Assembly: GCA_043819555.1 (NCBI GenBank) | Contig: JBDREQ010000005.1 | Span: 1 to 21,581, forward strand | DNA from: Candidatus Zixiibacteriota bacterium | Lineage (GTDB): Bacteria; Zixibacteria; MSB-5A5; GN15; JAAZOE01 | Direction of reading: 5' to 3' | Length of the DNA: 21,581 nucleotides | In this document: positions 6,001-21,581 of the stretch, in pieces | Numbering within the stretch: the first letter of the stretch is position 1 | How the letters are laid out: every line of letters starts with the position of its first letter | Position numbers: made by a program

Positions 6001-9000
6001 CACAGTCCCCCAACTGGCGTATATAAGTATCCGATATAAGCAAATAGGCTCGAGTTTTGGTAGAATCCAACTCAACCACTTTAAGTAAATAATCTACCGA
6101 TTTTCCCCAGTCTTCAAGCTGCAACGTGCAATAAGAGGCATTAAGATATATACCGGCATCGTCCGGACCGATATCAATACGGCGGTCATAATAAATAAGA
6201 GCATCGGCGTATTCCTTAATTTGATGAAATGAAATCGCCGCCGAAACCGCATATCTTGAATTTTCCGGTTCAAGTTCACTGGCCTTAACATAATAACTGG
6301 CCGCACTGGCATAATCATCCAGAGCCTTATAAGCATCCGCAATCCTACGATTCAAATCGGCATCCGGCTCCCATTCGGAATCCTGCCCTTTCATCCATTC
6401 TATATGCTTAATTAAATTATCGATGCCGACCTGGTATTGTTCCAATGCAATTTTGGAACGGCCAAGATAAAGATAAATATTGCTGGGTACGTCACCGATG
6501 GAAAGAACGTAACTGAGAGCCGAATCGGCCGATTCATAACCGCCCAGGTTAAAATAAGCTCGGCCAATATTAAAAAAGACTTCGCCATCGGTGCTGTCGT
6601 TCGATAATTCCAGGAATTTCCTGTAAGAGCCGATCGTTTCAGTAAATCTCTGTTTTTTCGTCCCCTGATCGCGTGCTGACAAACCTGCCATGATATATAG
6701 TTTGCCTGCTTCTTTCCAGGCATAAGCATAGGTCGTGTCCCGGCTGAGTACAATGCTCAATTGATTCAGGGCCTCGGTATATTGGTTTTGAACCATGTAT
6801 GCGCGAGCCAGTCGAAAATACACGTCAAGATTGGTTGTATCCATTTCAATAACTTGATTATACTCATTAATGGCTAAAGGATATATTTTCGAAAAATAAT
6901 TGGCATCGCCAAGATTGACATGAAATTCCGCCTGATCCGGACCGATCTGGATTGCTTTACGGAATTCAATATCGGCCTTGGTATATTCTTCCCGCTCCAT
7001 AAATACCAATCCCAGGCCGTTATGAAACCATGATTTTTCTTCCTTGGCCTTATTTATCCCCTTATTAAAGTCCTTTTCAGCATCATTTATTTTGCCTTGC
7101 TTCAGCAATACTGAGCCCTTTAAATATAGGGCCTCATATAATTTCGATTTTTTATCCAGAGTAATCTCAAATTGCTCTAGAGCTTCCTCAAATTTACCCC
7201 GGGCATTAAATATTTTTCCTTTTAATAGATAATTGTAGGCATATGAGGGATCAGTCCTTATAGCGCCATCAAGTGATATCAAAGCCTGGGCCGTGTCAGA
7301 ATTATCTAATGCTGTCAAAATTTGGGGATCAATTTCCTCGGCAAAAATGGTCGAAGAAAATACCCCCACCATAATTATTAATATACAAATCCATCTTGAT
7401 GTTTTAATAAAAGCCATTGTTCGCTCAAACCCTTTCAATTCAAAAGAAATCGAGAGTTCCATAATACAAAATACGCTTCTTATGTCAAGCTGTTTTTCAA
7501 GAGTCATTATCCTGACCAACTTCCTCAACCAATTCATGCAAACTCTCATTTTCTTTTCCCCTTATTTGCTTAAAAGCGATTATTGATTGTCCCATTCGAG
7601 CCACAAAATAAAGGCTTACGAAAATGCCAATCACCCAGCGAAATGAATCACCCAATGAACCGGGATAATAAATCGCTATGGCCATCCCGCCAATAAACAT
7701 GACAAATGCCGAAAACATGTTTATTGCAATTTGTAAACCGCTGGTCGCCATATTATTTATACCATCAATAATACAATTAAGAACAACAATTCTTCCCGGC
7801 AAAAGTTTGAATAATATGAATTTAACGAATCAAAACCCGTGCCATCAAACAGGATTGTATAAAATTTTTATCTTGTTGTTAATCAGCGAGTTATTAATTC
7901 TGCTCCAAGCTTGAAATTACCCGTTTCAATGCTTTTATCGTCGGATTCCCCGACGATAACAATCATCAACCAAACTATTCTATTACAACATCTTACGATT
8001 CGCAATATTTGCGGAATTACTCCAGCCATTCGGCATTACATACGATTTTTTTCTCGAAGCCTATCTCAATCATTATTTTACCGCGATATCCCTCAAAATC
8101 TCCTTTTGTATTAACAGCAGGATACCAGGTAAACCTTGACATGATTTCTGAAATATTTTCTTTTAGTTTATCAGAGACACTAGAAGGTGAAAAATTTATC
8201 GTATTCCCATCCTGATTAATATAGATTATGCCTGATGCTCCGCCAAATGCGTTTTTAGTCAGACTGCTGGCGTTTTTATATCCCAGGGGAAAATTTCTCG
8301 GGATTGGAAAGAGGCTAATATCATCGGGATTTAGGCTGAGTGTCATAAAATATTTTTCTGCATGTGTCATATCTCCAGAACTGTCAATGGATTCAGTTGG
8401 TGAATAAGGATAGTCTATATTATCAAAAAACCTGAAGACAAAAAGAAAATCAGACGCAATCGCTGTACCATTGATTGATGCCGGTGTGAATTCGGAATTT
8501 ATCAAAGCTGTCAATACCGAATGCGTACCCTTATCCATCCCTGAAAACGGGAAGGATACATCAATTAATTCTCCCATTTCATCTATTATAATTCGAGCTG
8601 CGACTATTTCATATTGGCCGCTTTTGCGGGACGGATCGACACGAAATTTCATCGGCGGTATTTTTTTTGCTTCAGGCAAGACGATAGTATTTAATCTCAA
8701 AAATTCATAGGCCAAATCTCTATCGTATTTGTACCCGGATTCGGTTTCATTATCCTGGAGTACAAAAGGCAGCTGGAGATCGATTGAGCCATTCACGAAA
8801 AACTCATAGCCAAATATTACTTTGATGGGAACACTTATTGGCTCTCCCAATTTTCTACCTATGGTAAACTGGAATTGGATTTTTTTGAGTTTCTTTTTCA
8901 CCGATTCAATCCAGCGCAAAGAATCCGGGGAAAAATTTATCTCCTGGACCTTACCCTTTCCATCAATACTGAGAATGGCTTTGATTTCAGACTGCGAAAA

Positions 9001-12000
9001 TCGTTTTTTAGATATTTTGTGATCCAGTTTTATTTGCGGAATCTCTTTGGGGTAAGGCAAAGAAATTCCTAAATAGTTATGAAACGAACCTATATTGGAA
9101 GCCGATCCAATATTCGTTCCCAAACCCAAACAGATAATAATTAAAGCCGGGAAAATCCAATTTCTAACCATCTTAAGAAGTTATACTCAGAAAAGAAAAT
9201 AGTAAACAAAAAATTTAGGCGTCTTCCGAGGAAATATTAAAAAATCCGCCAATTTTACCATATAAAAGTGAAAATTTTGACCTAATTTTTTTTTTGAAAT
9301 ATAAATGCGTATTGAATGAAATTATTATAAATTGTGCTGTTTCAGCCTAATCCGGACACAGGGGTGCAATTGGCTGATCGAGCTGCACCACGAAAATCCG
9401 GCGCTGATAAATCCACGTACCGCCGCCAGATTTGTATTTCATAAGGCATTCCCACCCATGTTAATAACATAATTTCATGCGTGGGAGACTCAAACTTGGG
9501 TTCGATGTGTTAGATGGATACAGTGGTAAAAGTGGCAAAGGTTTGACAGGGAAAGAGCATAAAGCCGAGACATGCGAAGCCAATGATTTAATGATTTATC
9601 CATTGTGAGCATGGACTGACGATTTCGTTTTTTTTGCTTGTCGCCAAATTATTAGGAATATCTTCAGAGAAATATCATATTGGCTGGTAATTCCCACGGG
9701 CAAACTTATATGTTTATTCGCGACATCGGCCAAATACTTATTTAATCAAAGACTGGCTCTCAATTACCTTTTATGGCATTGAATACATAAATCCATAGCC
9801 GGATCAAGCGGAAGATAGTTTTCAAAATTAGCGCCATGGAGTTTGTGGCAACTAAGACAGGTCAGCTGCTTCTGAGTTCGGGGATCTGTTATATTGCCTC
9901 CCGCTGGATGTGATACCTTATGTGCTGAAACATGACAAGTCGGGCACAAATTCATGCCATCGGCGTTCAAGTATCGGTCATTATCAGAACCATGCGGAGA
10001 ATGGCAATTGGAACAATCCATACTATTATGCGTGATATATTCGGATTTCTTTTTGACCGAAAACTCCGGACCGGAAAAATGACAGCCCATGCATAATTCG
10101 GATTGCCCGCTTGCCAGTAGGGATTTTCCTGAAGATGAATGCGGATTGTGACAATAAAGACATGATTTTTCGGTATTGAGGTTATGGGTATATTTTATAT
10201 CGACTTTCGTTCCAATAGAGGAATGACATTTTCTACATATAGTTTTGACATCGGAAACTAACTCAAAACTGGATTTCCCTTCAGAAGTTTTATGACAAAT
10301 TTCACATTTATTGTTTTTGAAAGGAGCATGTTGATTTTCCATTAATAGGTTCCCGGTGGATGTTGCATGGGGATCATGACAAGTCATGCAATTAGCCTTT
10401 GACATATTATAACCCTTATGCCGGGTATTGAAACTTTCATCCCGATCATGGCAATCAAAACAGATAAAGGGAATGTCACCGACTAACAATTTTGGATTAT
10501 TTGAATTGTGAGGCTGGTGACAGACCTGGCAATCCCCATCTTCCACTGGTGAATGCACTACCGCCCTATTTTTCCACTCGGCCACATTAGTATGGCAATT
10601 CGCGCAAAGCTCAGTTGTGGGAGAAATAAGTTGACTGGTAAAACCGGAGGCATGAGGATTGTGGCAAAGAGTGCAATCTCCTTCTCGAACCGGGCCATGA
10701 ATCGATCCACCTTCCGCCATATGCCCAATTTCTTCGTGGCAATTCATACAAATGATTTGATTATCGTCATTAAGAAGCGAAGCGTGCTGGGAGGCATGGG
10801 GGTTGTGGCACGATGAACACTTACCGTTCGCGAAAGCAGTATGCTGATGCTTTTTGCCCAATAAATCTTCGATTTCTGAGTGGCAAACCAGGCACACCGA
10901 AGGCTCATCGACAACAACATTTGCCGCTGATATCGGACTTATCAGGACAAGCAAGAGTATTATTCCGCTAAGGTATGTTCGGGTTTTCATTGTTCATCCC
11001 CCTGCTTTTCGGTATCGACTTTGGTGTGGCAGATACTGCAATCTCCTCCCTCAAAAGGATCGTGCGAATTGGCCCTCATTAATGCACCCTTGGCTGAGGC
11101 ATGAGGATCGTGACATTTGCGGCAATCGATTTGATCACCGCTCAATCCGAGATGCCTGGATTTAAATCCGGAATCTTCCCCATCGTGACAATCCAAACAT
11201 AACGCCGGAATACCGGAATTCAACAGGCTTTCATGTGCCGCGGTGTGGGACGAGTGGCATCCAAGGCATTCTCCCCTCCCGACCGGTGCATGGGGCGGAC
11301 CGGAGGCAAGAAGAGTTTTCAATTCGGTGTGGCATGACAAACACAATTGATCCTCTTTATCAAGCAATAGCGATGGCAATTTGGCATAATGGGGATTGTG
11401 GCATTTTATACATTCACCGTTGATCACGGGCTGATGAGCGCTGACCAGAGTTTCCGGATTGCCTCTTATATCGTCATGGCAGTCAGAACATAAGGCATTA
11501 AGATCCTGTGCCAAAAGTCCATTGAAATCAGAAGAATGAGGCTGATGACACTGATCACAGGCATGATCTTCGAAGGGGGGATGAATAGTGTAATCATCGG
11601 AAGAAACCGCCAATCCTTCATGACAAGTGAAACAAAGTTCATTGCGGTCATCCCGCAACATAAATTCCCGGCTTGAAGTATGAGGATCATGACAGGCAAT
11701 GCATCGGCCAGCTTTCAAAGGAACATGAACGTCTTTCTGCACCATCCAATCGTTAATTTCATTGTGGCACTCGCCGCAGAGAACAAGCCCTTTGCCTTTT
11801 GTCAGTTTATTTTCATCGGAACCATGAGGAAGGTGGCAATCAAGACAAGTCCCATCGGCAAAGGGGAAATGCGCGTGTTCAGGTGATTGATTTGCCTTCC
11901 AATCGGCATGGCATTTGTCGCATAGCTCGCTTATTTTCCCCGCAATGAGTTTTTTATTCTTCTCTCCGTGACCGTTATGACAAAGAGTACAATCTTCCAT

Positions 12001-21000: not shown

Positions 21001-21581
21001 GACACTTGTGATTTATTTCACAACATTATCTACGACAACTTAATCGCTACTATTAAGGCCTTTCTAATCCCGTATACATAACTTGCCCCAATTTAATACG
21101 TTTTCAGAAATACGCAAGTATATTTATCCTGTTTTTTTGCATTATTCATGGTGTAATTTGTCCTCATTAATTAGGCATTATATTTGCTATTTTATCCAAA
21201 ATACAATTGAAAAATGAGTAACAATAGGAACAAGATATTTTGATCTTTTATTTCAAAGATGAGCCCATTTTTGGGCCCCTGAAAACGGCTTTTTAATCCA
21301 GTTTTTAATATCGACTTTGCGTATAAGAGCAAAACAATGATGTAATTATATCCGATTCGCCAAGCTAACGGGATTTAAAAGAATCTTATGCGACAGACGT
21401 CCCGTCTGCCCCCGCCAAAATCAGTAAAATTACCAATAAAGCGGAGAGGCTGGGATTCGAACCCAGGAACGAGTTGCCCCGTTAACTGCTTAGCAGGCAG
21501 CTGCCTTCAGCCGCTCGGCCACCTCTCCGTAATGAATCGTCAATATAATGACATTTTCAAATTTTTCAACTTATTTCTTGA

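Follow-up and report, generated by a model that had tools for sequence, protein, structure and literature searches.

The window analysed was a stretch of 21,581 nucleotides, positions 1 to 21,581 of contig JBDREQ010000005.1 of Candidatus Zixiibacteriota bacterium (assembly GCA_043819555.1; genome 97% complete). The minus strand of positions 9764–20961 contained eight co-oriented open reading frames (ORFs) with intergenic gaps of −4 to 102 bp, in agreement with the eight-gene operon claimed in an earlier note on this DNA (Table 1). The haem counts given there for the three cytochromes, 6, 26 and 16, were recovered as CxxCH motifs. Its feature start at position 8017 was not borne out: the 384-aa ORF at 8017–9171 lies 592 bp past the operon and outside it. 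This ORF was rejected as a ninth gene, having no family match and not being conserved after the 16-haem gene. The claimed gene order held in each of the 30 loci of relatives that extend as far as the 16-haem gene, and the description of the cluster as kept intact was correct in part, with split ORFs in 8 of the 31 loci followed through to the last gene. A sigma-70 scan of promoters stayed at chance level (35 vs 34.7), and the −10-like hexamer was absent from the promoter-scan output. A terminator scan was likewise at chance level (16 vs 13.6) and missed the hairpin after the second gene, which is without a U tract here. For positions 14700–21100 no RNA data set was listed, a negative with no bearing on expression.

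Table 1. Features of the operon and its upstream region, in contig positions.
Feature	Positions	Strand	Evidence and remarks
Candidate −10-like hexamer GATAAT	21025..21030	-	one base upstream of the Rex box; read by eye
Rex-type operator TTGTGATTTATTTCACAA	21006..21023	.	1 mismatch vs TTGTGAA-N4-TTCACAA; 45 bp upstream of the first gene
NHL beta-propeller, 368 aa, first gene	19855..20961	-	PF01436 E 2.6e-14; position like the NHL gene preceding omcS-type genes
Candidate filament subunit: compact hexahaem cytochrome of the OmcS family, 352 aa (331 mature)	18694..19752	-	6 CxxCH
G+C-rich RNA hairpin just past the stop codon of the hexahaem gene; may act as terminator, attenuator or mRNA stabiliser	18605..18635	-	z −5.2, 0/200 shuffles
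OscE-like outer-membrane beta-barrel, 727 aa	16419..18602	-	Geobacteraceae-type E profile 67.6 bits; PF22633
OscF-like lipoprotein, 191 aa, PelC-like fold	15824..16399	-	33% identity to Geobacteraceae F, E 7e-34; lipobox
OscG-like protein without lipobox, 366 aa, with two PelC-like domains	14719..15819	-	G profile 107 bits, two domains
OscH-like PpiC/SurA-type chaperone, 562 aa	13027..14715	-	PF13145 E 1.2e-17; H profile 88 bits
OscI-like 26-haem periplasmic cytochrome, 666 aa	10987..12987	-	35.5% identity over 650 aa to the Geobacteraceae 26-haem gene
OscJ-like 16-haem cytochrome, 408 aa, closing the operon	9764..10990	-	33% identity over 423 aa, E 1.5e-91

The known system closest in layout is the osc (omcS-companion) cluster of Geobacter sulfurreducens, given as GSU2501 and the block GSU2500–GSU2493 (Shen et al. 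2025, Cell Chem Biol 32:239, via passages of PMC13194489 and PMC12977616). Named Geobacteraceae metagenome-assembled genomes (MAGs), not strain PCA, served as reference loci, and letters were assigned by position. Six of the eight genes matched OscE–OscJ in profiles and alignment and were collinear with these loci, so that the osc homology proposed in the earlier note is now backed by alignment for six genes. Both clusters have an NHL gene upstream and a hexahaem gene followed by a barrel (E), two PelC-like proteins (F, G), a PPIase (H), a 26-haem (I) and a 16-haem (J) cytochrome. The motif spacing of the OscI-like protein was near-identical to that of the Geobacteraceae 26-haem gene, and E–H were only 18–33% identical to their Geobacteraceae counterparts. 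One hexahaem gene stands in the Zixibacterial cluster where the reference system has two or three.

Contrary to the earlier claim, the cluster is not complete, since oscD and oscK are missing. In the named Geobacteraceae loci, the oscD position is held by a propeller gene of ~470 aa between the hexahaem and barrel genes, and the oscK position by an NHL gene after the 16-haem gene. An oscD orthologue was absent from the cluster, and two profiles and tblastn detected none elsewhere in the genome, where the best matches (E 1.7e-6 and 8.7e-6) were to a generic propeller. Among the relatives, 14 of 41 loci contained oscD, and a quick barrel tree indicated its repeated loss (7 changes, at least 3 of them forced). 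A role of oscD in morphology is described in a passage of PMC13194489. No NHL gene followed oscJ here or in any of 29 relatives. The upstream NHL protein, which scored 74.8 bits against the upstream-NHL profile and 57.6 against the downstream-NHL profile, might cover the role of OscK.

The OscE-like barrel was modelled with about 29–30 strands and an inserted F5/8-type-C-like domain (pLDDT 90), and matched no Pfam or NCBIfam barrel family. With 28–30 strands, it is predicted to measure 52–55 Å across (standard formula, assumed shear); OmcS filaments are ~4 nm wide according to a passage of PMC6584659. The OscF-like profile matched PelC structures with E 1e-7 to 9e-6 and the OscG-like profile matched PelC 9h80 with E 2.8e-13, although a single-sequence PDB search with the OscG-like protein returned nothing relevant. 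Of the two proteins previously called lipoproteins, one kept this designation, the OscF-like protein having a lipobox (31/36), and the OscG-like protein did not (1/35). In PelBC of Pseudomonas aeruginosa, twelve PelC lipoproteins make up a ring on the periplasmic side of the export barrel (PDB 9H80; PMC12141448). The likeness to PelBC lies in F and both G domains. In contrast, the Zixibacterial barrel is much larger and in these searches was unrelated, a cytochrome would be the cargo and the ring is putative. In the ESM Atlas, recognition stayed below the threshold, and all clusters obtained were unnamed or generic.

OmcS (6ef8, E 1.6e-40) was the sole sequence match of the hexahaem protein in the PDB, as the earlier note had stated. 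A profile extended the match to full length (E 1.4e-116), and the structural model aligned with OmcS 6EF8 at Z 26.1, TM-score 0.78 and an rmsd of 2.7 Å over 313 residues, with 38% identity in the structural alignment. As modelled, the protein has the OmcS fold, and the full-length homology together with the six CxxCH motifs substantiated its description as a six-haem OmcS homologue. The OmcS-like ends, an N-terminal FH and a C-terminal CNKCH, were kept. Twelve histidines are candidate ligands, namely the six of the CxxCH motifs and H2, H16, H99, H136, H206 and H272, with His16 presumably being the inter-subunit ligand. They were kept in 119/119 close homologues and in 21–22 of 22 delta-type homologues. 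OmcS has 12 His ligands, one of them donated by the neighbouring subunit, as a passage of PMC6584659 describes. Since oscC-position proteins also keep all 12 His, this set does not discriminate between a wire and an OscC-like protein.

Compared with OmcS (GSU2504; 6EF8/6NEF), the hexahaem protein is ~80 residues shorter, is missing OmcS segments of 34, 10 and 25 residues, and has extra histidines conserved in the compact clade (H85, H179, H198). In a quick tree it was sister to the entire OmcS/OscC-type (delta-type) paralogue set and is therefore not assignable as an OmcS orthologue. Its gene context was omcS-like, with an NHL gene before it and a hairpin after it. According to passages of PMC12977616, OmcS is the only one of four paralogues in G. 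sulfurreducens for which wire formation is known, and where just one hexahaem precedes the block in a Geobacter genome, it is of the GSU2501 type.

A hairpin with z ≤ −2 followed the hexahaem gene in 39/39 relatives' loci. Elsewhere in these loci, such hairpins were found after E in 0/36, after H in 0/31, after G in 2/33 and after the NHL gene in 4/38, and 15/29 loci also had one after the last gene. In the Geobacteraceae loci, a hairpin followed 5/5 omcS-type genes and 0/4 oscC-position genes. Being shared with omcS-type genes and absent after oscC-position genes, the hairpin fits a bulk filament subunit. It suggests unequal stoichiometry of the hexahaem protein and the downstream products, and may also be a plain terminator. 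A dispersed repeat was rejected, as the genome contained no exact copy of the hairpin core.

The palindrome reported upstream of the first gene was confirmed at 21006–21023, and its reading as a Rex box was strongly borne out by footprinting, with a site in 34 of 37 relatives. Controls gave 0/267 for internal gene starts, 0/16 for orphan hexahaems and 0/10 for delta/Nitrospira NHL genes. The Rex-specific positions were conserved in the relatives (T1 34/34, A7 27/34, T12 28/34). Like sites in this genome precede rex itself (26 bp upstream), sat, dsrA, a QmoA-like gene and a pyrophosphatase gene; rex was present in 263/285 phylum genomes. Rex sites also precede sat and dsr genes in Desulfovibrio. 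The Zixibacterial regulon is like known ones in its motif, in the site before rex and in the sites before sat/dsr genes, and here extends to a putative cytochrome-filament cluster. The site also fits the CRP core, TGTGA-N6-TCACA. At the level of sequence, the Rex box is well supported, as the operator is conserved, rex is present in the genome and the site matches the consensus TTGTGAA-N4-TTCACAA (a passage of PMC5317091, citing Ravcheev 2012). Our literature queries, none of which paired Rex with OmcS, returned no report of Rex control of a cytochrome-filament cluster.

A close hexahaem homologue was encoded in 46/285 phylum genomes (16%), fewer than the fifth of Zixibacteria estimated earlier, and stood in cluster context in 44 of these 46 carriers. 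A frequency of 94/285 was rejected because 48 of the 94 belong to a distant tier with 28–39% identity. Orphan hexahaem loci without the block made up 17/60 of the loci examined. A rearranged second version occurred in 36 other genomes and never together with the first. DsrA was encoded in 10/46 carriers vs 87/203 genomes with neither version, which argues that the cluster is not a sulfate-reducer trait. The designation of the hosts as sulfate reducers probably suits this genome, which has putative dsrAB, dsrC, dsrMKJP, sat and qmoC (a small ORF after dsrB had no match to Pfam DsrD), but not the carriers at large. Elsewhere the genome encodes CbcBA-like proteins with 19 and 11 haems, which carry cytochrome b domains, as well as ccmAB.

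We lean, with modest confidence, towards a reduced system of the osc type: its product would be an OmcS-like cytochrome filament, and Rex would keep it repressed as long as NADH does not build up. Under acceptor scarcity, NADH would release Rex and the operon would be transcribed, with the hairpin leaving more NHL–hexahaem message than downstream message. The Ccm system would load haem onto the hexahaem protein, which the PPIase chaperone would hold before it threads a ring formed in the periplasm by the PelC-like F/G subunits and exits via the barrel. It would polymerise head to tail, with one His crossing between subunits. The 26- and 16-haem proteins could connect the filament to quinol-oxidising membrane cytochromes encoded elsewhere. 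Surplus electrons would then leave by the filament for minerals or partner cells, chiefly in lineages that lack dsrA. Several points stand against a wire: the tree does not place the hexahaem protein as an OmcS orthologue, the three OmcS segments, oscD and oscK are missing, and 17/60 hexahaem loci lack the block. In studies cited in a passage of PMC13194489, neither the reduction of Fe(III) oxide nor growth on anodes required OmcS. We regard the Zixibacterial system as a variant of the published osc system, and Shen et al. 2025 may already list Zixibacteria.

A broader proposal is possible but doubtful. The phylum may possess two mutually exclusive, interchangeable nanowire machines (46 and 36/285 genomes), both Rex-controlled and concentrated in lineages without dsrA, and so divide into lineages that respire sulfate and lineages that use wires. 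In its compact form the machine would be a minimal kit of eight genes that makes an OmcS-type filament without OscD/OscK, with a 30-strand barrel on a PelC-type ring.

We consider it unlikely that the hexahaem protein is instead secreted like OscC/GSU2501 and anchored on the surface as a monomer or short oligomer by an ancestral secretion system, which Geobacter later used for wires. Passages of PMC12977616 put this option forward for Geobacter, and it agrees with a hexahaem gene in oscC position adjoining the block, with the short protein that is sister to all delta-type paralogues, and with the repeated loss of oscD. The omcS-type layout argues against it, as oscC-position genes have no hairpin; the retention of all 12 His is non-discriminating. 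It is quite improbable that the cluster encodes an MtrCAB-like porin–cytochrome conduit, in which the 16- or 26-haem chain sits inside the barrel and the hexahaem protein serves as a one-to-one terminal reductase. MtrB (6r2q_B) had the top TM-score (0.42) among the listed barrel matches, and the 42 haems of two rod-like cytochromes could span the envelope. However, the likeness to MtrB is generic (7% identity), and export is indicated by the chaperone and the PelC-like ring proteins. The hairpin speaks for unequal stoichiometry, and an MtrA/DmsE-like decahaem locus exists separately in the genome. Least probable is that the same structure takes electrons up, from Fe(II), sulfide minerals or partners, or that a CRP/FNR-type activator reads the palindrome instead of Rex: the site fits the CRP core and passages of PMC8478452 report iron-oxidation as well as iron-reduction genes in Zixibacteria, but the Rex-specific positions are conserved, the same motif precedes rex, and derepression by NADH, as can be deduced from a passage of PMC5317091, fits an electron outlet and not uptake.

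If a filament is formed, an uncultured phylum that is abundant in sediments would dispose of excess electrons via cytochrome filaments under direct control of the NADH/NAD+ ratio. The natural deletions, with oscD lost several times, oscK never seen and one short hexahaem protein, would amount to a test of the parts an OmcS wire needs. They also bear on whether a single-hexahaem layout makes a wire, a question raised in passages of PMC12977616. The operator and the hairpin offer two cheap experimental handles.

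The cluster consisted of eight ORFs with intergenic gaps of −4 to 102 bp, downstream of a tRNA-Ser gene (see table). CxxCH motifs numbered 6 in the second, 26 in the seventh and 16 in the eighth ORF, matching the eight-gene operon and haem counts of an earlier note. A 384-aa ORF, 592 bp past the last cluster gene, had no Pfam or NCBIfam match; its N-terminus was signal-like and, by eye, three short repeats resembled a TonB C-terminal motif.

Coordinates of features in the window and in fetched regions (L numbers; G000, the window's genome)
Feature	Position	Strand	Description
Cluster	20961-9764	minus	368, 352, 727, 191, 366, 562, 666, 408 aa in operon order
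Hexahaem gene	18694-19752	minus	second ORF of cluster
384-aa ORF	8017-9171		
Genes unrelated to cluster	358-7549		TPR protein, ExbB/TolQ-like gene, two ExbD-like, two TonB-like; named from sequence appearance, family scan of TPR gene only
Second layout, example	L120:4458-18966		one of L120-L131; I and J fused as 42-haem protein, Rex-like sites
DsrD-position ORF	L135:12099-12341		81 aa, winged-helix-like, after dsrB; no Pfam DsrD match
CbcBA-like genes	L144:6568-11351 (G000:C39)		cytochrome b domain proteins with 19 and 11 haems
Sigma-54 regulator	L144:2026-3419		near CbcBA-like genes; split into two ORFs
sat upstream region	L138 (G000:C47:22983-23140)		three Rex-like sites in tandem ahead of sat; one ahead of divergent qmoC-like gene

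Reference loci were obtained with a motif scan (20 named stretches), and three Geobacteraceae loci were extended. Their order was hexahaem, propeller (467–477 aa), barrel (757–770 aa), genes of ~200 and ~440 aa, a PPIase of ~590 aa, 26-haem and 16-haem cytochromes and an NHL gene of ~300 aa, in agreement with the eight-gene Geobacter block GSU2500-GSU2493 (passages of PMC12977616). Passages of PMC13194489 give oscC, oscI and oscJ as GSU2501, GSU2495 and GSU2494, and assign folding to H, secretion to E/F/G and morphology to D; the other letters were given here by gene position. Window genes 3–6 matched the E, F, G and H profiles with 68, 132, 107 and 88 bits, and genes 7 and 8 shared 35.5% and 33% identity with I and J, at near-identical motif spacing, so that the osc match proposed in the earlier note now has profiles and alignments behind it for E–J. 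oscD had no match within the cluster or the genome, and no NHL gene followed J, the oscK position, here or in 29/29 relatives. The cluster, previously called complete, thus comprises six genes of the eight-gene block; the locus is almost certainly an osc variant.

OmcS was again the sole PDB sequence match of the hexahaem protein (E 1.6e-40), as claimed before. A profile of 142 homologues aligned with 6ef8 over its full length of 407 residues (E 1.4e-116, a value favoured by the 22 rows that came via an OmcS-derived motif), and the model (pLDDT 83) superposed on 6ef8 with TM 0.78, Z 26.1 and rmsd 2.7 Å over 313 residues. OmcS has 12 His ligands, one supplied by the next subunit (passages of PMC6584659). 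Here, the His of the six motifs together with H2, H16, H99, H136, H206 and H272 were conserved throughout the close homologues (119/119) and, among delta-type proteins, in 21 or 22 of 22. His16 is presumably the bridging inter-subunit ligand. The close clade was compact, with a median mature length of 329 versus 413 residues; three stretches, of 34, 25 and 10 residues, were missing from it. Three extra His (mature H85, H179, H198), present in 113–119 of its 119 proteins and not conserved in the delta-type, may form an extra metal site or a ligand switch.

A quick tree (123 rows) placed the Zixibacteria proteins in a clade with support 94, sister to a clade (99) mixing omcS-type and oscC-position proteins, so the hexahaem cannot be assigned by descent to OmcS over OscC. 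A non-polymerising OscC-like surface cytochrome has perhaps a modest chance of being the correct reading. A strong hairpin (z −5.2) lay 3′ of the hexahaem gene and recurred in 39/39 relatives, unlike at other internal junctions; in Geobacteraceae loci it followed 5/5 omcS-type and 0/4 oscC-position genes, with mixed results in other delta loci, and z ≤ −2 was reached in 2/16 orphans (compact hexahaem genes without the block). We infer that the hairpin serves excess hexahaem production.

The E model (pLDDT 90) had ~29–30 long strands and an inserted domain and matched generic barrels only. The F and G profiles matched PelC structures; in PelBC, PelC forms a periplasmic ring of twelve subunits (PMC12141448). 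Barrels occur near most OmcS and OmcE genes (passages of PMC13712944). A one-to-one porin-cytochrome conduit seems unlikely.

The claimed Rex box (≤2 mismatches to TTGTGAA-N4-TTCACAA) proved to be conserved ahead of the NHL gene in 34/37 relatives with upstream DNA, two further loci having no such DNA; the site was absent from 267 other gene starts, 16 orphans and 10 delta/Nitrospira NHL genes. The window's genome held nine sites with ≤1 mismatch, versus 0–4 in three shuffles. Rex-like sites preceded rex, sat and dsrA as well as the genes of a QmoA-like protein, a pyrophosphatase and a sulfhydrogenase subunit, but 22/43 lay inside crude ORFs. rex was present in 263/285 phylum genomes, and Rex represses at low NADH/NAD+ (passages of PMC5317091). 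The cluster is very probably under Rex control; a CRP-type regulator, or inward electron flow, is improbable.

Hexahaem matches (E ≤ 1e-3) occurred in 94/285 phylum genomes, in two tiers, the close one (≥47% identity) in 46. Sixty regions from 45 relatives yielded 43 cluster loci and 17 orphan copies. Gene order was identical in all 30 relatives' loci that extend to J, as claimed; 21 of these loci had unbroken ORFs, eight a split ORF (L057, L062, L081, L086, L088, L091, L104, L112; either assembly errors or decay) and one a contig-end cut. D was present in 14/41 relatives' loci with a visible junction, with seven changes on a barrel tree (43 rows; outgroup with D), at least three forced by strong branches. 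The same compact cluster was found in 31/37 metagenome loci of ≥5 kb (from 78 returned); their G+C of 41–74% and mostly absent Rex site suggest that it is probably not limited to this phylum. The orphans (L090, L093-L095, L097-L103, L105-L110) had no Rex site and mostly no hairpin, and possibly encode alternative subunits exported via the cluster's genes. A ~265-aa seven-haem cytochrome gene lay upstream of the NHL gene in 31 relatives' loci (L057, L059-L062, L064-L067, L069 and others) and in most second-version loci; the window's genome had no clear orthologue, and the tRNA-Ser occupies that place.

The weak tier belonged to a second version in 12/12 regions fetched: a 33- to 42-haem gene (missing from one region, itself cut by a contig end), NHL, distant OmcS-family hexahaems, a ~580-aa barrel weakly similar to E and two PelC-like genes. 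The one large cytochrome tested was an I-J fusion. Neither D nor H was in view in these 12 regions, and all had Rex-type sites. The second-version marker occurred in 36/285 genomes at E < 1e-70 (39 at 1e-25) and in none of the 46 first-version genomes, against 4.9 overlaps expected within families, although exclusion probabilities are overstated because kin are not independent. In one relative (G280, L126), CbcBA-like genes directly adjoined the second-version cluster.

The earlier label of sulfate reducers fits the window's genome (matches to dsrAB, dsrC, dsrMKJP, sat and qmoC) but not most other carriers. dsrA was detected in 100/285 phylum genomes: 10/46 first-version carriers, 3/36 second-version carriers and 87/203 others, single absences being soft because the genomes are incomplete. 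The deficit was seen in six families and reversed in two.

The osc system has been published as widespread; in the literature searched, no paper linked an osc cluster to Zixibacteria, and the osc paper's supplements could list the phylum. Added by the present analysis are the footprint of the Rex operator, the contrast in hairpin placement, the recurrent loss of D, the mutual exclusion of both versions and the deficit of dsrA among carriers. On balance we lean towards a Rex-gated system as the whole reading: Rex would gate production of an OmcS-type filament that would leave through the E barrel seated on the F/G ring, H would act as chaperone of the filament subunits, and I and J would supply electrons from CbcBA-like quinol oxidases encoded elsewhere in the genome.
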